From: Myxococcota bacterium
GTDB taxonomy: Bacteria; Myxococcota_A; UBA9160; SZUA-336
Assembly (NCBI GenBank): GCA_965247115.1
Contig: CBDFGR010000003.1
Coordinates: forward strand, 96,001 to 160,000
Direction of reading: 5' to 3'
Length of the DNA stretch: 64,000 nt
Shown here: positions 29,277 through 55,016 of the stretch, piece after piece
Layout: each line of letters opens with the position of its first letter
Numbering within the stretch: the stretch's first letter is position 1
Notes under the pieces: model-generated
The model's database searches: none
What the model was told of the DNA's origin: nothing
What the model saw: the letters and a program-made list of their open reading frames with translations, nothing else
Program-made: the position numbers and the translations under genes

Positions 29277-29394
29277 CTCGCCGTCTCCTCCCCTCGCGGC
29301 CAGTCTACTGTAGCGGCAGGACCGCGGCCGCCCGGCCCGGTCGAGCTTGACCCGGCGCTTGACCCAGTGTCGCTGACTGCGGTAAAGAGAGTTC

Positions 29395-29481
29395 GTGCGT
29401 CGACTGGACCCGAACGCGTTCGCCTTTGCCTATTACCGCTGGTTTACCAGCGGGGCACGAGGGACCTGCGCGATCCAGTAG
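29395..29481 (+). CDS. Aromatic amino acid leader peptide (28 aa) MRRLDPNAFAFAYYRWFTSGARGTCAIQ
   Basis: GTG at 29395 to TAG at 29481. Six aromatic codons within nine positions (F3, Y2, W1), immediately upstream of an intrinsic terminator and DAHP synthase. Confidence 0.85.
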   Translation: MRRLDPNAFAFAYYRWFTSGARGTCAIQ

Positions 29482-29540
29482 AACGCATCCGCAGGTAAGA
29501 CCCTTTCCAGCCCCGAGAAGAGTTTCTCGGGGTTTTTTTT
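29436..29540 (+). promoter_or_regulatory. Ribosome-mediated transcription attenuator
   Basis: 1:2 hairpin CCGCTGG/CCAGCGG (29436-29453). 2:3 antiterminator CGGGGC(29451-56)/GCCCCG(29510-15), AGGG/CCCT and ACCTGCG/CGCAGGT. Mutually exclusive 3:4 terminator. Confidence 0.82.
29511..29540 (+). terminator. Rho-independent terminator of the attenuator
   Basis: CCCCGAGAA-GAGT-TTCTCGGGG followed by T8. Confidence 0.9.
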
Positions 29541-29582
29541 CGCCGGGGCCAGACCCGGCTCCAGCTAGCGAGGAAGCTCCCG

Positions 29583-30677
29583 ATGCAAGAACAACTCGAC
29601 GGCGCAGGCCCCACCCTCCTGCCTTCGCCCGCAGAGCTGAAGACCCGGCTCCCCAGGGGAAGCGCGGCTCGGGCCGTGGTGAAGTCTGGCCGCCGCGCGA
29701 TCGCGGACGTCCTCCACGGCCGCGATGCTCGTTTCGTCGTGGTTGCTGGCCCCTGCTCACTCCACGACCCCGAAGCGGCCCTGACCTACGCGCGGCGCCT
29801 GGCACGGCTGGCACGCGAGACGAGCGACGTGCTGGCGATCGCCATGCGCACGTACGTGGAGAAGCCCCGGACGGCGCTGGGCTGGAAGGGTCTGGTCAAT
29901 GATCCCGACCTCGACGGCTCGTGCGACATCGCGCTCGGGCTCGAGCGCAGCCGACGGCTGCTGCTCCAGATCAACGAGCTCGGGCTGCCCTGCGCCAGCG
30001 AGATCATCGATCCGATGACCCCGCACTATCTTGGCGACCTGCTCAGCTGGGCCGCGATTGGCGCACGTACTTCGGAGAGCCAGACCCACCGTGAGCTGGC
30101 CAGCGGACTGCCCATGCCGGTGGGCTTCAAGAACGGGACCTCGGGGGCGCTCGATGTTGCGTGGAACGGAGTCGTAGCGGCGCGTCGACCGCACAGCTGC
30201 TTCGGACTGGACTCGCACGGACGAGCTGCGCAGCTGCGTACTCCGGGGAACCCGGACGTGCACCTCGTCCTGCGCGGCGGTGGCGGTCGCACCAACTTCT
30301 CCGTCGAGGACGTAGCAAGCGCCAGCGCACGCCGGAATGGTCTGGCGCGGCCGCTGTTGATCGACTGCTCCCACGACAACTCCGGCTTCGACCCGGGGCG
30401 TCAGGCAGGCGTCTGCCGGGCGGTGCTCGAGCAGCTGCTCGACCGCGGAGAGACCCCGATCCTGGGGATACTGCTAGAGAGCCATCTGCTCCCTGGCCGG
30501 CAGGACTGGGCACGCGGTAAGCAGCTCGAGTTCGGCGTCTCGATTACCGACGGCTGCATCGGCTGGGAGGAGACCGAGGCCCTGCTCTACGAGATCGCGG
30601 AGGCTGTCGCCCGCTCGAAACGACAGCGCGCTCCAGATACCCTGCGCCTCGGAACAGCCATGAGGGAGTGTTCGTGA
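29583..30677 (+). CDS. DAHP synthase, type I-alpha (AroF/G/H-like)
   Basis: [54 protein letters not shown]. Confidence 0.95.
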
Positions 30678-31141
30678 GCGAGCGACCGTTCTCCGTGCTA
30701 GGGCTGCAGCAAATCGCGATCGGCTCTGACGACAAGTCGAGGCTGCACCGTCTCTGGGTGGAGCTCTTGGGGCTGCAACAGAGTGGAAGCTTCAAGAGCG
30801 AGTCGGAGAACGTCGACGAGGACATCGCCACGCTGGGCTCGGGTCCCCGCCAGGTGGAGGTCGACCTGATGCAGCCGATCGATCCCGACGCCCGGCCGCG
30901 CGTGAGCACGCCCGCGCTGAACCACATCGGGCTCTGGATCGACGACCTTCCAGCAGCCGTCCGCTGGCTCGAAGAGCAGGGCATGCGCTTCACCCCCGGC
31001 GGCATCCGCAAGGGCGCCGCAGGACACGACGTCTGCTTCGTCCACCCCGTCGCGAACGACGAGTTCCCCCTGAGCGGCGAAGGTGTCTTGATCGAGCTCG
31101 TCCAGGCCCCCCCCGCCGTCATCGAGGCCTTCCGCCCATAA
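30674..31141 (+). CDS. VOC family protein (methylmalonyl-CoA epimerase/glyoxalase-like)
   Basis: [48 protein letters not shown] overlap with the DAHP synthase stop. Confidence 0.85.
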
Positions 31142-31214
31142 CTTGGGGACGGTCCTTAGTTATAACTCTTCCGCGCTTTCCAAGAGTTATAACTAAGGAC
31201 CGTCCCCAAGTTAT
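31138..31214. repeat. Perfect 33-bp inverted repeat (REP doublet-like), 11-nt loop
   Basis: ATAACTTGGGGACGGTCCTTAGTTATAACTCTT (31138-31170) and its exact reverse complement (31182-31214), between convergent genes. Confidence 0.92.
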
Positions 31215-45315: not shown

Positions 45316-46155
45316 TCAGTCTCCAGTTCGCTCGACGTTTAGTGCCCTCGCCTGGGCGTGTTCCAGCTCATCTTCCAGCGCTGCTCGATCTCCGTGCTGC
45401 AACGCATCTGAAATTCTGTGGAGATCCTCTTCGAATCGGCCAATCTGTTCGGCCACCCTGTAACGGTTCCTGAGCAGAATCTCACACCACAGCTCGGGGT
45501 TGGCTCGAGCTATGCGAATGAAATCACGCAGTCCGGGACCCGCCAACCGCAAGACGTCCTGATCGGGCAGACCCCGCGCGAAGGCAAAGGCAATCACGTG
45601 CGGGGCGTGAGAGAGAACTGCGGTGATGGCGTCGTGCTCCTCCGGGGCTCTGCGAACCGTAACTGCGCCAAGACACTGCCAGAATTCGTCGATGCGGTCC
45701 ACTACTTCGGCCGCTTCGTGGCCTTCGGGAGTGAGGATGCAGGGCGCCCCGACGAACAGATCGGCCCGGGCTCGCGCGAAACCGGTCTGGTGGCCTCCCG
45801 CCATTGGGTGTGCACCCACACAGTTCTCGGGATTCGGTAGGATTCTTCTCGCCATCTCCGCCATCGGAGCCTTCACGCTGGCGAGATCTGTGATGAGTGT
45901 GTCGGGCCGGAGATGGGGGACCAACCCCTTGAGTACGCTCTCCATCGCCTCGATCGGGACGGCGAGCAGCAGACCGTCCGCCCAGCGTCCGGCTTCGGCC
46001 AGCGAGACCAGCTCGATCTCGCCAGCATCCGCGAGATTGGGGTCGACTCCTCGTACCTCGTCCGCCGCGCCCCGGTCTCGCGCCGCCAACGCCGCCGAGC
46101 CCCCCAGCAGTCCCAACCCTATGACGGCGAGGCGAGAGAACCCGGGGACGCTCAC
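45316..46155 (-). CDS. tyrA: Prephenate/arogenate dehydrogenase
   Basis: IGLGLLGGS, TDLASVK, HPMAG, HD....LSHAPH, GLRDFIRIA. Confidence 0.88.
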   Translation of the reverse strand: MSVPGFSRLAVIGLGLLGGSAALAARDRGAADEVRGVDPNLADAGEIELVSLAEAGRWADGLLLAVPIEAMESVLKGLVPHLRPDTLITDLASVKAPMAEMARRILPNPENCVGAHPMAGGHQTGFARARADLFVGAPCILTPEGHEAAEVVDRIDEFWQCLGAVTVRRAPEEHDAITAVLSHAPHVIAFAFARGLPDQDVLRLAGPGLRDFIRIARANPELWCEILLRNRYRVAEQIGRFEEDLHRISDALQHGDRAALEDELEHAQARALNVERTGD

Positions 46156-47270
46156 CCCCGGAGCTCGTCGGCCAGCGCCGCCAGGAAACGCTCGTTCTCC
46201 TCGGGAAGTCCCACCGTCACCCGCAGGTGTTGTGGTAACCCGAAGCCAGCCATGGCTCGGGTGATCACGCCGCGCCGCAAGAGGCCCTCGTACAGTGGAG
46301 CCGCCTCCCGGCCGGCGTCGACGAGCAGGAAGTTCGCGTCGCTCGGTGCGACCCCCAGGCCGAGTGCCTGCAAGCCAGCTTCGAGCTGGGACAGGCCCTT
46401 GTGTGTCAGGTCCCGCACCCTGCGCACGTGCTCACGATCCTGGAGGGCGCCGCGCGCGGCGGCCTGGGCCAGGCTGCTGACGTTGAACGGGTGTCGCGCC
46501 CGCGCCAGGTAGCCGATCAGCTCGGGATCACCGATTCCGTAGCCGACGCGAAGTCCTGCCAGCCCATAGACCTTGGAGAACGTGCGCAGCACGACCAGAG
46601 TCGGTCGCCCGGACAACGCGGCCACACTGTCGGGAAAGTCCGGCCGGCGCACGTATTCCAGGTACGCCTCGTCGGCAACGAGAACGACCCGCTCCGGCAG
46701 CTCGGCAAGCAGGGTCCGGAACGCCTCCGCCCCGATCGACGTCCCCGTCGGGTTGTTCGGGTTGGCCAGAAACAGGAGACGCGTTCGTTCCGTGACGGCT
46801 TCCAGAAGCGCAGCGACGTCGGCGCGCAGCTCGGCGTCGAGCGGCACCTGGATCGCAGTCCCGGCGACGCTTTGCGTGACGATCGGGTACATGGCAAAGC
46901 TCGGCCAAGGAAAGACGGCCTCGTCTCCCGGCCCGAGCAGGCACTTTGCGAGCAGCTCGAGAATTCCGTCGGAGCCTGTACCGAAGATCAGGCTCTCGCC
47001 TGCGATGCCCAGGCTCTCGGCCAGCTCCCCCCGCAGGTAATGACAGGAGTCCTCCGGATAGCGGTTGATGTCTTCGGCCGCGGAGAACATCGACTGCATG
47101 GCAAGGGCAGAGGGGCCGAGCGGACACTCGTTTGAGGCCAGCTTGATCGACTCGCGGATCCCGAGCTCACGCTCGAGCTCCTCGATCGGCTTGCCGGGGG
47201 AGTACGGCTCGAGGTCGCGGATGTGCGGGTTGACGAGCTCGCGCAGCTTCAGCTTCCGCTTCAGCGTCAT
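46152..47270 (-). CDS. hisC: Histidinol-phosphate/aromatic aminotransferase
   Basis: IKLASNE, NPNNPTG, DEAY, RTFSKVYGLAGLRVGY. Confidence 0.92.
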   Translation of the reverse strand: MTLKRKLKLRELVNPHIRDLEPYSPGKPIEELERELGIRESIKLASNECPLGPSALAMQSMFSAAEDINRYPEDSCHYLRGELAESLGIAGESLIFGTGSDGILELLAKCLLGPGDEAVFPWPSFAMYPIVTQSVAGTAIQVPLDAELRADVAALLEAVTERTRLLFLANPNNPTGTSIGAEAFRTLLAELPERVVLVADEAYLEYVRRPDFPDSVAALSGRPTLVVLRTFSKVYGLAGLRVGYGIGDPELIGYLARARHPFNVSSLAQAAARGALQDREHVRRVRDLTHKGLSQLEAGLQALGLGVAPSDANFLLVDAGREAAPLYEGLLRRGVITRAMAGFGLPQHLRVTVGLPEENERFLAALADELRG

Positions 47271-48358
47271 CCCGAGCCCTCAGCCTCCGGGTAGCTGCCG
47301 AGCACCTTCACAAAGTCACAGCGAGGTCGGAGCTGCTCGATAGCCTTCGCGACGTCGGGCTCCTCGACGTGTCCCTCGAAGTCACAGAAGAAGACGTATT
47401 CCCAGGCACGGGCGCGGGTGGGCCGCGACTCGATTCGGGTCAGGTTCACGCTGTTCTCTGCGAAAGGTTGCAGAGCCTTGTAGAGCGCGCCCACCTGGTC
47501 GCGCTTGATCGAGAACAGGAGCGACGTGATGTCGCGCGAGCTCCGCAACGGGGGCTGCTTGCCGATCACGAGAAAGCGCGTCGTGTTCTCGGAATGGTCC
47601 TCGAGGCCCGAGCGAACGACGCGCAGCCCATAGAGCTCGGCAGCGATCGGGCTCGCGATCGCTGCCGCACGCTCTTCACTCGTCACGCGCTCCGCTGCCT
47701 GTGCGGTGGAGTGAGTGGAGTGCTGTGGCACGTTCGGAAGGTTGAGCTCGAGCCAGCTGCGGCACTGGGCGAGCGCCTGAGGGTGCGAGTACACGACCTC
47801 GATCCGACTCTCGTCGCCGCTCTTCGAGAGCAGGTCGTAATGGACGGCGACGTGGACCTCGGCACAGATCGTGAGCGGCGAGTCGACGAAGAGGTCGAGC
47901 GTGTGGCTGACCACGCCTTCGTTCGAGTTCTCGATGGGTACCACGCCGTACTCCGCGCCACCCGCCTCGACGGAGTCGAAGATCTCCCGGGTCGTCGAGA
48001 CCGGCACCAGATCCGCCATCTGTCCGAACTGCTGAATGGCAGCCTGCTGCGTGTACGTCGCGGGAGGTCCCAGGTACGCAACACTCACGCCGCGCTGAAG
48101 CGAGATCGAGGCGGAAATGATCTCGCGGAATACGTTCCGAATGGCGTCTTTGGGAAACGGACCGCGGTTCCTCGCCTCCAGGCGCTCGAAGATCTCGAGC
48201 TCCCGCCCCGGCACGAAAGGCGTAGAGCCGCTTGTGGCCTTGAGCTTCCCGATCTCCGCGTTGCAGCTGGCGCGATCGTTCAGCAGGTCCAGGATCTGGT
48301 CGTCGTGCGCGTCGATGCGAGCGCGCAAGGCGGCGATCTCTTTGTCCCTCTCCGTCAT
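47267..48358 (-). CDS. pheA: Chorismate mutase/prephenate dehydratase (P-protein)
   Basis: LRARID..D (chorismate mutase), AYLGPPATY, VPIENS, SHPQALAQC, NTTRF, IESRP. Confidence 0.93.
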   Translation of the reverse strand: MTERDKEIAALRARIDAHDDQILDLLNDRASCNAEIGKLKATSGSTPFVPGRELEIFERLEARNRGPFPKDAIRNVFREIISASISLQRGVSVAYLGPPATYTQQAAIQQFGQMADLVPVSTTREIFDSVEAGGAEYGVVPIENSNEGVVSHTLDLFVDSPLTICAEVHVAVHYDLLSKSGDESRIEVVYSHPQALAQCRSWLELNLPNVPQHSTHSTAQAAERVTSEERAAAIASPIAAELYGLRVVRSGLEDHSENTTRFLVIGKQPPLRSSRDITSLLFSIKRDQVGALYKALQPFAENSVNLTRIESRPTRARAWEYVFFCDFEGHVEEPDVAKAIEQLRPRCDFVKVLGSYPEAEGSG

Positions 48359-48422
48359 TCCAGGCTGTTCTCCCAGTCTTGCGGGTCCCGGCGGTTGAGC
48401 GGTCGCGCGGCGCTCGCTGGCC

Positions 48423-48476
48423 CGAAGTCGGCGCGAGGCGCGCGAAGCCGGAGCGAAACGCGCGAAGCCGGCGCGA
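48423..48476. repeat. Degenerate 20-bp tandem repeat (about 2.7 units), same family as 7401-7488
   Basis: CGAAGTCGGCGCGAGGCGCG / CGAAGCCGGAGCGAAACGCG / CGAAGCCGGCGCGA. Confidence 0.7.
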
Positions 48477-48553
48477 CTATACCCCAGGGGCACATCGGTG
48501 CCAACTCGTTCGCAGGAATTTCTTTAGCAAAGACGGACTGTTAGGAGGTTGCG

Positions 48554-49348
48554 TCAGTGCAGTGCCGCCGCCAGACCCGACACGAACTCGGTCGCTGCAG
48601 AGACGGCAGCCGAGCGGCTGGTGGCCGCACCGATGCGACTGACGAGGGCGCTTCCGACAATCACGCCGTCTGCCAGACGACCCACCGCAGCCGCGTGCTC
48701 TGGTGTGGAGATTCCAAAGCCGACACAGACTGGAGTCGCGGTCACACGCTTGATGCGGCCCACGAGCAGCGACAGGTCGCTCGGCAGCTCGGCACGCTCG
48801 CCGGTTACGCCCGTCGTCGACACACAGTAGACGAAGCCTCGGCTGCGGGCGGAGATCTGCACGGTGCGCTCGGGGGTGCTCGTCGGCGCGACCATGAGGA
48901 TGCGGTGCACGCTGTGCGCGTCGCAGGCGCTCTGCAGCGCGGGCGCCTCTTCGTAGGGCGCGTCGGCCACGATCAGGCCGTCGACCTGCGCGGCGGCGCA
49001 GTCCCGAGCGAAGCGTTCCTCACCTCGCGCGAGCACGTTGTTCAGATAGCCCATCAAGATGAGCGGCGCGTCGCTTACCTCGCGCGCCGAGCTGCAAAGC
49101 TCCAGTACCTGGTCCAGGTTTGTCCCCTGCTCGAGCGAGCGGAACGAGGCGCCCTGAATGGTCGGACCCTCGGCGATGGGATCGCTGTGCGGCACTCCGA
49201 TCTCGATGATGTCCGCACCCGCGGCGAACAGCTCGGGGATTAGGTCGGCGGTGGTCGCGATGTCGGGGTCTGCGGCCGTGATGAACAGGATCAACGCCGC
49301 GCGGCCCTCGGCACGGGTCTCGGCCAGTACGCGGTCAATCCGGTTCAT
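48554..49348 (-). CDS. trpA: Tryptophan synthase alpha chain
   Basis: [45 protein letters not shown]. Confidence 0.95.
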
Positions 49349-51132
49349 GTCTTCTTTCCCAGCAGGTCACGCGCTTCGGCCGCGTCCTTGTCGCCGCGTC
49401 CCGACAGGTTCAAGACCACGAGGGCGCCCGCAAGCTGCGGTGCTCGCTTGCGCAGCGCGGCAATGGCGTGCGCCGACTCGAAGGCCGGAATGATCCCCTC
49501 CATGCGCGCGAGGTAGACGAATGCGTCCAGAGCTTCGGCATCTGTGGCCGCCACGTACTCGGCGCGACCAGTGTCCTTGTAGTACGCGTGCTCGGGTCCA
49601 ATGCCAGGGTAGTCCAGCCCAGCCGCGATCGAGTGGGCCGGAAAGATCTGCCCCGCGTCATCTTGAAGGACGTACGAACGGCTCCCGTGCAGGACGCCCG
49701 GGCTGCCCGCAGCCAGCGGCGCCCCGTGTCGTCCCTGCGTCAGGCCCTCGCCGCCGGCCTCAACACCGAGCATGCGCACCCCACGATCGTCATAGAACGG
49801 GTGGAACAGGCCGAGGGCGTTGCTACCACCACCGAGACACGCGACCAGCAGATCCGGGAGCCGACCCTCGGCGGCCAGGATCTGCTTGCGCGTCTCCTCT
49901 CCGATTACGGCCTGGAGATCGCGGACGAGTCGCGGATAGGGATGAGGACCGGCGGTCGAGCCGATCAGGTAGTACGTGCTGCGAACGTTGGTCGCCCAGT
50001 CACGCAGGGCCTCGCTCATCGCATCCTTGAGCGTACGGCTGCCGGCTGATACGGGATGCACCGTTGCACCGAGCAGCTCCATGCGAAAGACGTTGAGCGC
50101 CTGGCGACGCATGTCCTCCTCACCCATGTAGACCTCGCAGTCGAGGCCATAGCGCGCACAGGCGGTGGCACTCGCAACGCCGTGCTGTCCTGCGCCGGTC
50201 TCGGCGATCACACGCTGCTTTCCCATCCGTCGAGCGATCAGAGCCTGCCCTATGGCGTTATTGATCTTGTGCGCGCCGGTGTGTGCGAGCTCCTCGCGCT
50301 TCAGGTAGACGCGACAGCCCAGGTCCTCGCTGAGTCGCTCGGCAAGAGTGAGGGGTGTGGGCCGGCCCGCGTAGGTCTGTCGCTCGAGCTGCAGCTCGTC
50401 CCAGAAGCTCTGGTCCTGCGACAGCGCGTCGTAAGTCTCGCTCAGCTGCTCCACCGCGGGAACGAGAGTCTCCGGAACGTAGCGTCCCCCGTACGCGCCG
50501 AAGTATCCGAGCGCGTCCGGACGTCCCACGTCGAGCGGCGCGTGGGCTGCCTTGACGAAGCGGCGCACCTGCTCCGCGGACTTGCGACCCGGCTCCGACT
50601 CGAGCGACGACGAGGCGTCCACCCCGTGGGGCTGGGCTGCTCGCACCGCGGCGGCCACGTTCTCGGCAGACAGGCCACCCGCCAGCCAAACGCGTCGCCC
50701 GCGCGAGACGAGCGACCGGGCGAGCTCGAAGTTCCAGCTCTTTCCGCTTCCACCTCCCCCGGGGTGATCGATGAGGAGATCGGCGGCGGGATAGCGGGCT
50801 GCCTGTGCCTCGAGCGACTCGTCGCCTCGAAGGACCACGATCACGGGATATCGAAGCTTCGCAACGTAGGCCGGGGACTCCTGGCCGTGAAGCTGTACCG
50901 CGTCCAGGCCGACGCTCTCAACGAGCTCCTCGATTCGCTCCGGCGCTGCGTCCTGGAAGACACCCACGCGCAGAACGCGACCAACGGCCAGGCGGCTGAT
51001 CTCGAGAGCGCGCTCCGGGTCGAGCGCGCGCGGCGTTCCCGGGACGAAATTCAGCCCAATCGCGTCGGCCCCCGCCTCGATCGCGGCGCGTGCGTCTTCC
51101 ACGGAAGTCAGGCCACAGATCTTCACCTGCAT
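49345..51132 (-). CDS. trpFB: Fused phosphoribosylanthranilate isomerase-tryptophan synthase beta chain (TrpF-TrpB)
   Basis: N-terminal VKICGLT, VQLHG, LAGGL, GVDASS. From about aa 205: [46 protein letters not shown]. No internal stop. Confidence 0.93.
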
Positions 51133-51911
51133 CAGCCCGTCCCCCGCAGCCTGGCCAGCTCTTCGCCCGGCTCAGGTGCCCGCATCAGCGCCTCGCCGAT
51201 CAGAAACGCCTCGACTCCCTCGGCCTGCAGCGAGCGCAGCGTCGCCGCGCTGTCGAGACCGCTCTCGCTGACCACGCTCCGACCGGCCGTGTGTGGCAAG
51301 AGGGAGCGCGTGACAGCGACGTCGGTGTGGAAGGTCTTGAGGTCGCGGTTGTTGATGCCGAGAATCCCGCCGTCGAGCGCGAGGGCGCGGTCCAGCTCCG
51401 GACGAGAGTGGACCTCGACGAGGACGTCGAGACCGCTCTCGAGGGCCGCGGCAGCGAGCTCGTGCAGGCGGGCGTCGTCGAGCGCCGCGACGATCAACAG
51501 CACGGCATCCGCTCCGGCGGCGCGCGCCTCCAGCACCTGGATCGGGTCGACGGTGAAGTCTTTGCGCAGCACGGGAAGCGTGCAGGCGGCCCGTGCCGCA
51601 CGAAGGTCCGCGAGGCTGCCCTGAAAGAAGTCGGTATCCGTAAGCACGGACAGCGCCGAAGCGCCAGCGTCCTCGTAGGCGGCGGCGATCGCGGCCGGAT
51701 CCGCGGCTGGCCGAATGGCCCCACGCGAGGGCGAGGCTCGCTTGAACTCTGCGATCACGCGAGGCCGCGTGCCGCTGCGCAGCGCCGCGGCGAAGCCGCG
51801 CGCGGGCTCGGCCGAGGAGACCAGCTCGCAGAGCGCCGACTCGCCAACGCTTCGACGCAGAGCGCTCGCCTCTTCTACTTTGCGAGCGAGGATCTCCTCG
51901 ATGATGCTCAC
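51132..51911 (-). CDS. trpC: Indole-3-glycerol phosphate synthase
   Basis: [33 protein letters not shown]. Confidence 0.95.
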
Positions 51912-52926
51912 AGTGCAGCCTCATCGCCGCGTGTGAACGCGACGAAGCTTGCCAGCAGCCGCTCTGCCTTGCCGGAGTCGATCGTCTCCGCCGCAAGCTG
52001 GACACCGTCCTCGAGGCTGGCGGTGCGCTCGGCCGCGCAGAGCCCGGCTGCCGCGTTCAAGAGCACGACGTCGCGCCGCGGGCCGCGTTCCCCGGAGAGG
52101 ATGGCGCGCGCGATCTCGGCGTTCTCGTCGGCGTCTCCTCCGACCAGCTGCTCGGGATCCGCCGCCGGCACGATCTCGTCGGGTTGCAGCCTGCGCTCCT
52201 GGGTCTGACCCGCTTCGTAGCTGAGCACTCGAGTCGGCGCGGAGATCGAAATCTCGTCCAGCCCGTCTTCGCCATGAACGACCCAGGCACGGCTAGTACC
52301 GAGCTCGATCAGCGCTTGCAGCATCGCATCCATGTGATCCTGCACCGCGACACCGACGACCTGTCTGCGTACGCCCATCGGGTTCGTGAGCGGTCCCAGG
52401 CGGTTGAAGAGGGTCCGAATGCCGAGGGCCGAGCGGATCGGCGCAACCCGGGCCATGGCCGGATGGCAGGCGGGCGCAAACAGAAAGCCGATCCCGACGT
52501 CCTGCACGGACTGAGCCATCAGGTCGGGTGGCGCGTCCAGGTCCACGCCGAGCGCCGCCAGTACCTCGGCGCTCCCGCAGCGACTGCTCGCCGCGCGGTT
52601 GCCATGTTTCGCCACCGGCACGCCGGCGCCCGCCACCACCAGGGCAGAGACCGTCGAGATGTTGAAGGTGTTCGAGCCGTCTCCTCCGGTGCCGCACGTA
52701 TCGATCGCGCCCTCGGGTGCCTCGGGCAGCTCCACTGCGAGCTCGCGCATCGCCTGCGCAGCGCCGATCAGCTCTTCCACGCTCTCGCCGCGCGTGCGCA
52801 TGGCCGCGAGCAGACCCGCGATCTCCAGCTCGTTGCCATCGCCCTGCATGATGGCGCGTACGAGCTCGTTCGCCTCACCGCGCTTCAAGACCTCGCCATC
52901 GACCACTCGCTCGAGAACGTCTGGGA

Positions 52927-52930
<4 letters not shown>
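51908..52930 (-). CDS. trpD: Anthranilate phosphoribosyltransferase
   Basis: [34 protein letters not shown]. Confidence 0.95.
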
Positions 52931-53513
<583 letters not shown>

Positions 53514-53517
<4 letters not shown>

Positions 53518-55016
53518 GCTCGTTCGCCTCGACCTGCAAGCTCCACCGCCTGGAGCGGGCCCCTGGCCTTGTGCAGGGACTCCTGATACTCGAGCTCCGG
53601 ATCCGAGTCCGCAACGACGCCGCCCCCCGCCTGGATGTAGACCTGACCGTCCTTGATCAGCAGCGTCCGGATCGCGATACACATATCCATGTTACCGCGG
53701 TAGTCGATGTAGCCCACGCTTCCACCATACAAACCGCGCCGCTCGGGCTCTAGCTCCTCGATGATTTCCATGGCGCGGATCTTCGGCGCTCCCGTAAGCG
53801 TACCGGCCGGGAATGTGGCTCGGAGCAGGTCGATCGCGTCGCACTCCGGCCGCAGCTTGCCCCGCACGTTCGAGACGATGTGCATGACGTGCGAGTAGCG
53901 TTCGATCACCTGGAACTCGTCCACCTCCACCGAGCCGATCTCCGATACGCGCCCGATATCGTTGCGGCCGAGATCGACGAGCATCAGGTGCTCGGCGAGC
54001 TCTTTCGGGTCTGAGAGCAGCTCGGCCTCGAGGCTGCGATCCTGCTCTGGCGTCGCGCCACGTGGCCGCGTTCCGGCAATCGGCCGCAGCTCGATGTTGT
54101 CCCCTTCCAGACGCACGAGAATCTCCGGCGACGATCCGGTCACGACGTGATCGCCGCAGCGCAGAAAGAAGAGGTAAGGCGACGGGTTGACCACCCGAAG
54201 CTGGCGATAGATGGAGACTGGATCGGTCTCCAGGGGAACCCTGAGTCGCTGCGACGGCACTACCTGGAAGATGTCGCCCGCCTGGATGTACTCCTTCGCC
54301 CTCTTCACCACCTCGCAGTAGCGCTCCCGGGTGGTGTTCGAGCGGACCTGCGTGTCGCCCTCAGGGGGAGCCTCGGTGGTGACGTCCGCGGGACGAAGCG
54401 GCTGAGCGAGGCGCTCCAGCACGCGCTCGATCTCGGCCAGGCCTTCTGCGTACGCGGCATCGGTCTGCCTCGGGTCCGCGACGCGGACGGGGTGAATGAT
54501 CATGAGTCGCTGGAGCTTGCGATCGTGCACGAGCACGGTCCGCGGCACCGTGAAGAAGCAGTCCGGGACGCCAAGCGTGTCGGGATTCTCCTCCGGCAAG
54601 CGCTCCACGTAGCGCACCCAGTCGTAGCTCAGATAGCCGACGGCACCGCCAGCAAAGCGTGGCAGCCCCGGCAGCTCCACCGGCCGCAGCTCCGCGATGA
54701 GCGTGCGCAGCCGGCTGAGCGGATCCACCGAGTGGTCCCGAGGGAGCTCGACGGTCTCCGTCTCGCCATCACGCGTGACCTCGACGCGTCCCTTCCGCGC
54801 GATCAGCGTCGCGCAGGCGCCGAAACCGATGAAGCTGAAGCGCCCCCAGTGCTCCTCGCCCTCGGCGGACTCGAACAGAAACGTCGTCTCGCCATCGTCG
54901 ACTTTCAAAAAGGTCGCGAGCGGCGTGTCGAGGTCGGCTAGAACCTCGCGTACGAGGGGGACGACGGCCCCTCGGGCAGCGAGCGCCCGAAAGGAAGCAA
55001 GATCGGGCCGAACCAT
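53514..55016 (-). CDS. trpE: Anthranilate synthase component I
   Basis: [52 protein letters not shown]. Confidence 0.95.

Follow-up and report, generated by a model that had tools for sequence, protein, structure and literature searches.

A predicted leader-peptide attenuator with phenylalanine, tyrosine and tryptophan codons ahead of a DAHP synthase gene in Myxococcota

In the genome of a Myxococcota bacterium, a class I-alpha DAHP synthase gene is preceded by a short open reading frame crowded with Phe, Tyr and Trp codons and by overlapping RNA stems that end in an intrinsic terminator. We consider it likely, on sequence and folding evidence, that this is a classical ribosome-mediated transcription attenuator, which would induce an extra DAHP synthase when aromatic amino acids run short. 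We also lean, with distinctly less assurance, towards all three inputs (Phe, Tyr and Trp) being functional. The mechanism itself is textbook, and the three-input claim would be the new part. The locus lies in a window of 64,000 nucleotides (contig CBDFGR010000003.1, positions 96,001 to 160,000), by which we mean the whole stretch of DNA that was analysed, and all coordinates refer to it unless another contig is named (Table 1). An earlier note, made from the letters of the window, had proposed a leader-peptide attenuator here, and the proposal is strongly supported by the conservation, covariation and geometry described below, as far as sequence and a folding model can speak to it.

The 28-codon frame was recovered as the earlier note had given it, with three Phe, two Tyr and one Trp codons within nine positions. 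Among 1410 terminator-like sites genome-wide, this leader is the only one with six aromatic codons in ten in an upstream short ORF, and two other sites have five in ten. At the aromatic frequency of the genome (6.9%), at least six aromatic codons in nine has a nominal P of 7e-6. All aromatic codons are intact in the sister species and in the strains of three other runs, among the differences listed.

Table 1 Features of the leader, the controlled gene and related genes (window coordinates unless a contig is named).
Feature	Position	Strand	Remarks
Predicted -35 element, TTGACC	29359-29364	+	36 nt before leader start; family peak 35-39 nt
Predicted -10 element, TAAAGA	29383-29388	+	6 nt before GTG
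Leader peptide ORF	29395-29481	+	GTG 29395 to TAG 29481; 28 codons; no Shine-Dalgarno sequence
Control codons	29419-29445	+	Phe9, Phe11, Tyr13, Tyr14, Trp16 (29440-29442), Phe17
Protector hairpin 1:2	29436-29453 (core)	+	Extends to about 29427-29457; -17.1 kcal/mol folded alone
Segment 2, switch arm CGGGGC	29451-29456	+	11 nt after first base of Trp codon
Antiterminator 2:3	29451-29470 with 29487/29490-29515		-32.3 kcal/mol folded alone
Antiterminator inner stem	29459-29505	+	29459-29470 with 29487-29505; can form alongside terminator; draws segments 2 and 3 close
Segment 3, GCCCCG	29510-29515	+	Common to antiterminator and terminator
Intrinsic terminator 3:4	29511-29540	+	Stem 29511-29532, U8 29533-29540; -18.2 kcal/mol folded alone
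Shine-Dalgarno-like GAGGA of DAHP synthase gene	29570-29574	+	From sequence
Class I-alpha DAHP synthase, 364 aa	29583-30677	+	TIGR00034, 402.9 bits (cut-off 173.2)
VOC/glyoxalase-family gene	30674-31141	+	Pfam PF13669; overlaps DAHP synthase stop codon
Aromatic gene run	45316-55014	-	trpE, trpG, trpD, trpC, trpF-trpB (one 595-aa frame), trpA, pheA, hisC, tyrA
Second DAHP synthase, probable class I-beta	L213:1429-2544 (genome G000, contig C2)	-	Regulatory-type N-terminal domain

When the alternative structures were folded, as the earlier note had suggested, all three stems that it postulated (1:2, 2:3 and 3:4) were present, together with the T8 terminator, which indeed ends 42 nt ahead of the DAHP synthase ATG. 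The mutual exclusivity of the stems was refined: it is confined to the outer 6 bp of 2:3 (29451-29456 with 29510-29515), and the terminator and the inner stem of 2:3 can form together. The region as a whole has a folding z-score of -4.48, and equal stability was reached in 0 of 200 shuffles. Folded at equilibrium, the full transcript carries the terminator wherever the ribosome is placed (P at least 0.98), and forcing the antiterminator gives -34.3 vs -39.4 kcal/mol. Since the full transcript always prefers the terminator at equilibrium, the switch must be kinetic, that is, co-transcriptional.

Transcription probably starts at or beside the GTG, as judged from sequence, which would make the leader leaderless. 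The promoter call rests on family spacing, and a strict sigma-70 scan found no promoter at the locus. Of the 84 leaders, 42 have a -35-like hexamer 33-39 nt before an in-frame start, the distances peaking at 36-37 nt, and out-of-frame starts, used as a control, gave three distances of 33-39 nt. A second TTGACC copy (29347-29352) belongs to a short duplication (29347-29364), at which runs X4 and X7 show a 12-nt deletion and the sister species has one copy. Run X1, the only run recorded as RNA, covered 6 of 30 bins, none of them on the leader, and gave a single exact contig of 151 nt within the enzyme gene.

Ribosome stalling was modelled on the transcript as it stands before segment 4 is made, with two ribosome footprints tried. 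In the query leader without a ribosome, the protector suppresses the antiterminator (P 0.027). With the A site on Phe9 or Phe11, the modelled P of the antiterminator is 0.88-1.0; from Tyr13 to Trp16 it is about 1; on Phe17 it is 1 or 0 depending on the footprint; and from Thr18 onward it is 0. The caution in the earlier note that a ribosome stalled on the last Trp/Phe codons may cover segment 2 thus applies to Phe17, where only the shorter footprint permits the antiterminator, and not to Trp16, where both do. For the family, 81 leaders were modelled (L034, L035 and L147 were left out), and the antiterminator was permitted at Trp in 78 of 79 leaders, at Tyr in 76-80 of 80, at Phe in 80 of 81 and at the stop codon in none of the 81. 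Permissiveness falls from 0.95 to 0.59 to 0.37 over the two codons past the last aromatic codon. Permissive upstream positions are partly trivial in such a model, and this sharp edge is its informative part. Trp codons cluster 9-14 nt ahead of the switch arm, which in the model is the edge of the ribosome's reach. The antiterminator formed without a ribosome in 65% of the 81 truncated leaders, and a local protector hairpin, counted without a shuffle control, was present in 71 of 72; the model does not clearly make the protector universal in the family.

For conservation, 41 relatives and 201 genomes of the class were searched. The 130 in-class loci comprise 30 loci (L001-L030) and 100 regions, the latter being, among the matches listed, those of at least 357 bits except one at a contig end, plus 32 weaker ones. 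A further 80 loci came from named genomes, and the duplicates L031, L032 and L041 (of L002, L021 and L162) were removed. A protein tree with low inner supports splits the loci into the query clade (97), a paralogue clade (39) and others (71). We applied a fixed rule (a terminator, a short ORF ending near it and at least three aromatic codons in ten), with the clades set by the protein tree, and found such leaders at 84/97 sampled loci of the query clade, 2/39 of the paralogue clade and 13/71 of the others; these counts cover kin and therefore overstate independence. The F/Y/W-rich uORF and covarying stems that the earlier note had proposed to look for upstream of orthologues are hence present in most of the query clade. 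Codons for all three amino acids are present in 81 of the 84 leaders, those for Tyr in 83 and those for Trp in 82. Both paralogue hits (L193, L205) and the outgroup hits L044 and L104 were rejected as chance, as they have no Phe or Tyr codon before the helix and lack the switch geometry. Among the 13 query-clade misses, two are true leaders that escape the rule, six keep the RNA switch with fewer aromatic codons, four have no leader, the gene lying directly behind another (L003, L111, L116 and L015), and one has diverged. In 11 further genomes of the phylum outside the class, no aromatic-rich short ORF was found before the class I-alpha genes; the enzymes that these encode have N-termini like those of the paralogues.

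Several loci depart from the common pattern. DAHP synthases of thermophilic Synechococcus and of a planctomycete (L033-L039) fall inside the Myxococcota query clade and carry the same leader; at weak node support, the sequences suggest that gene and attenuator may have been transferred together. In family f11 (L114, L123, L132, L143 and L173), the RNA switch and a Trp codon in its usual place remain, most Phe and Tyr codons have been lost and single His codons appear (four readable leaders, plus one with Ns); these are possibly Trp-centred or retuned sensors. Burkholderiales loci (L051, L054, L061, L066, L070 and L081) have Phe/Tyr-only leaders before DAHP synthases of another branch. Phaeobacter (L068) and a relative (L099) likewise have leaders before DAHP synthases from outside the query branch, in Phaeobacter with all three residues. 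The Burkholderiales and Phaeobacter-type leaders use a different switch helix, GGCGG with CCGCC.

The covariation alignment was built from sequence only and holds 82 leaders (L034 and L035 were left out). Within it, pairing in the 6-bp switch helix reaches 93.4% of cells, against at most 54% in slid controls, with 12 two-sided changes vs 2.5 in shuffles (0/500), while the terminator is paired in 96.6% of cells with 34 two-sided changes vs 7.3 shuffled; related sequences can outdo these shuffles without any structure. The better evidence is repeated three-way change: a G-C to A-U replacement in the switch occurs in 11/82 leaders, in seven of them across all three segments, and takes seven parsimony steps on a tree with weak inner supports. 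The codons also carry a signature of their own. Aromatic codons of the family leaders number 578 in frame vs 132 and 197 in the other frames, a bias partly built into the detection rule, and TTT and TAT make up 179 of the 422 Phe/Tyr codons in leaders vs 47 of 710 in the enzyme genes. Gly, Ala, Ser and Thr predominate among the spacer residues. A point against the three-input attenuator is that Trp is mostly present as one codon per leader.

The downstream gene is a DAHP synthase, as the earlier note had it, and can be assigned to class I-alpha (Table 1). The VOC/glyoxalase-family gene behind it, which is probably co-transcribed, is found at 11 of the 30 loci L001-L030. Directly past the VOC gene lies a near-palindromic stretch (31143-31201). 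Its depth goes up in DNA runs, which makes a repeated element probable, and L013 has a similar stretch upstream of its leader. The gene upstream of the leader, mutS, is divergent from the DAHP synthase gene.

In alignment, the N-terminal DDLRI-type strand is missing from the DAHP synthase of the window, and His, Pro and Cys replace Q151, S180 and F209 of E. coli AroG, positions that we take to form the allosteric (feedback) site. The AroG residues are kept in 39/39 paralogues. By its sequence, then, the controlled enzyme has likely lost feedback control. In the query clade, residue 151 or 180 is changed in 30/97 members, and the rule detects a leader for 29 of these; the positions are retained in most of the clade, so loss of allostery would be a feature of a subgroup.

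The leader does not gate the whole of the shikimate pathway entry step, as the earlier note had implied, because the genome also encodes a second, probable class I-beta enzyme (Table 1). This candidate has a Pfam DAHP domain above cut-off, a ferredoxin-like domain at 26.5 vs 27 and NCBIfam matches below cut-off, and such an enzyme was found in 19 of 41 genomes, mostly where the paralogue clade is not represented. Among 22 sampled query-clade genomes, 21 have a second DAHP synthase (12 of class I-beta type, nine paralogues), and the remaining one has an unplaced fragment. L212 proved to be a KDO8P synthase and was rejected. With the queries used, no class II DAHP synthase was found in the genome, and neither TrpR nor TyrR domains were found in this 98% complete assembly. 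In the aromatic gene run of the window, trpE begins within about 50 nt of the preceding lptD and no leader stands ahead of the run; there is no space for a trp leader behind lptD, and so no other aromatic attenuator was seen.

Taken as an attenuator, the locus would work as follows. Transcription would start from the GTG, and the ORF would be translated leaderless. When amino acids are plentiful, the ribosome would move on to cover segment 2, the terminator would form and the RNA would end near 29540. A shortage of charged tRNA-Phe, tRNA-Tyr or tRNA-Trp would instead pause the ribosome on codons 9-16 (17 is borderline), which would open the protector. Segment 2 could then pair with segment 3 ahead of the synthesis of segment 4, and the polymerase would read through. 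In logical terms the device would act as an OR gate for the three shortages, with responses that are probably unequal and strongest for Phe. The product would be an inducible extra isoenzyme, with feedback inhibition likely lost, working alongside the probable class I-beta enzyme.

The main alternative is that the attenuator is real and has one or two inputs, mainly Phe (perhaps Phe and Trp), which we judge unlikely, although it has to be taken seriously. The closest precedent speaks for it: the C. glutamicum aroR leader showed no Tyr response despite its Tyr codon (summarised in the available text of PMC11802643). Phe also outnumbers Tyr and Trp in the clusters (277:123:105 in 82 clusters; L034 and L035 left out), and the Trp codon also belongs to the protector, with its GG paired in 52/72 folds. 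Yet Tyr and Trp are kept in nearly every leader, as counted above, and family f11 retains the switch and its Trp codon while most Phe and Tyr codons are lost, so Trp appears to be under selection of its own. TGG occupies its aligned column in 72/82 leaders, and the U of UGG is unpaired or G-U paired in 56/72 protector folds, so the U is probably kept for coding. The tested precedent that ignored Tyr is why we are less sure of three working inputs than of attenuation itself; the near-universal retention of Tyr and Trp, and of Trp in f11, is why we still prefer them.

A second alternative is that the leader mainly reports tRNA modification or decoding speed, as all control codons start with U and are read by MiaA-modified tRNAs. 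MiaA acts on UNN-reading tRNAs, and in Pseudomonas aeruginosa trp attenuation is overridden when MiaA is lost (available text of PMC13434334). Non-aromatic UNN codons are also somewhat frequent in the clusters (30/287 vs 5.8% in the genome), but there is no pull towards UNN within amino acids: Ser is split into 25 UCN and 25 AGY, Leu uses UUR in 0/8 cases and Cys contributes only five codons. Moreover, the regulated gene makes the precursor of exactly Phe, Tyr and Trp. As the main signal we consider tRNA modification quite improbable; it may be a side input to the leader.

We think it highly improbable that the peptide itself is the effector, either through nascent-peptide arrest on a free ligand (TnaC-like) or as a small protein acting in trans. 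The fixed place of Trp would suit arrest, and an aromatic patch could touch the exit tunnel. However, the order and number of Phe, Tyr and Trp vary freely and the lengths differ; Trp is fixed relative to the RNA arm, whose own distance to the stop ranges from at most 16 to more than 40 nt; and in the folding model a stall at the stop codon would favour termination. A small membrane peptide would look different, as Leu, Val and Ile make up only 12/287 spacer residues. Lastly, a simple terminator or an ORF that arose by chance, neither of them regulatory, would agree with the lack of leader coverage in RNA run X1, which is uninformative either way, and is barely credible in view of the clade-specific conservation, the covariation, the uniqueness in the genome and the divergent mutS, which leaves nothing else here that needs terminating.

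Attenuation by leader peptides is well described. Classical attenuators (trpL, pheL, hisL) mostly sense the products of their own branch, multi-input leaders are known for the thr and ilv operons, and enterobacteria control DAHP synthase through three isoenzymes and TyrR/TrpR. The aroR leader of C. glutamicum is leaderless. It lies upstream of aroF, a DAHP synthase gene (Mentz 2013; available text of PMC4046766), and has Phe-Tyr-Phe codons, of which Phe limitation acted and Tyr limitation had no effect (PMC11802643, summarising Neshat 2014). Judged by description, the present leader resembles aroR in placing aromatic codons ahead of a DAHP synthase gene and differs in having a Trp codon, for which none is reported in aroR, and in belonging to a different phylum. 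A second relative is the uORFC-13-1 motif upstream of Acholeplasma aroF (24 representatives; Brewer 2021), a prediction with a ribosome-binding site and at least one Phe codon for which the available text of PMC8632094 does not propose Tyr or Trp sensing. It likewise combines a predicted uORF and terminator ahead of a DAHP synthase gene, whereas our leader has no Shine-Dalgarno sequence and starts at the predicted transcript start. In E. coli trpL and pheL, ribosome stalling drives the 1:2, 2:3, 3:4 logic (available text of PMC11802643), and Shewanella aroF is listed as 'attenuator sensing tyr-tRNA' in the available part of PMC2659441; the logic of these is as here, but each serves a single amino acid and is branch-specific.

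The earlier note knew of no described example in this lineage and left room for one. Leader control of DAHP synthase has been described elsewhere (aroR) or predicted (uORFC-13-1), and the version with Phe, Tyr and Trp was not found described. In the literature text covered, there was no Phe/Tyr/Trp leader before a DAHP synthase and no such leader in Myxococcota; Lopatovskaya 2010, Vitreschak 2004, Merino 2008 and supplements may bear on this. The available texts of PMC1262725, PMC4833913 and PMC3937554 contain nothing on this element. An Rfam scan gave nothing at gathering score, and no leader family (Phe_leader, Trp_leader) was among its seven sub-threshold hits. One published observation may be connected: in the screen for premature terminators by Naville and Gautheret (2010), the supplement lists the aroG family HBG000409 as over-attenuated with 21 cases (P 2.5e-10), among them Silicibacter, Bordetella and Synechococcus, with its sensor given as '?' and the family unnamed in the available main text (PMC2965389). 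Leaders of this kind stand at Phaeobacter, Alcaligenaceae and Oxalobacteraceae loci in our set, and the device is a candidate answer to that '?'.

A wider reading, which we put forward tentatively and hold to be somewhat short of even, joins four elements: a leaderless three-input OR gate; replacement of allostery, with tRNA charging as the sole control; input sets that evolve by codon swaps, of which the Trp-centred family f11 and the Phe/Tyr-only Burkholderiales would be examples; and identity with the sensor behind the aroG family of 2010. If this is true, one leader does what E. coli splits over three isoenzymes and two repressors. It would show the first shikimate step reading three aromatic amino acids without TrpR or TyrR, through about 150 nt of RNA, and would describe a widespread element that is absent from Rfam. 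The natural series of three-input, Phe/Tyr-only and Trp-centred leaders would offer a way to study how control-codon position relates to sensitivity, and the element would be a compact candidate biosensor for aromatic amino acids.
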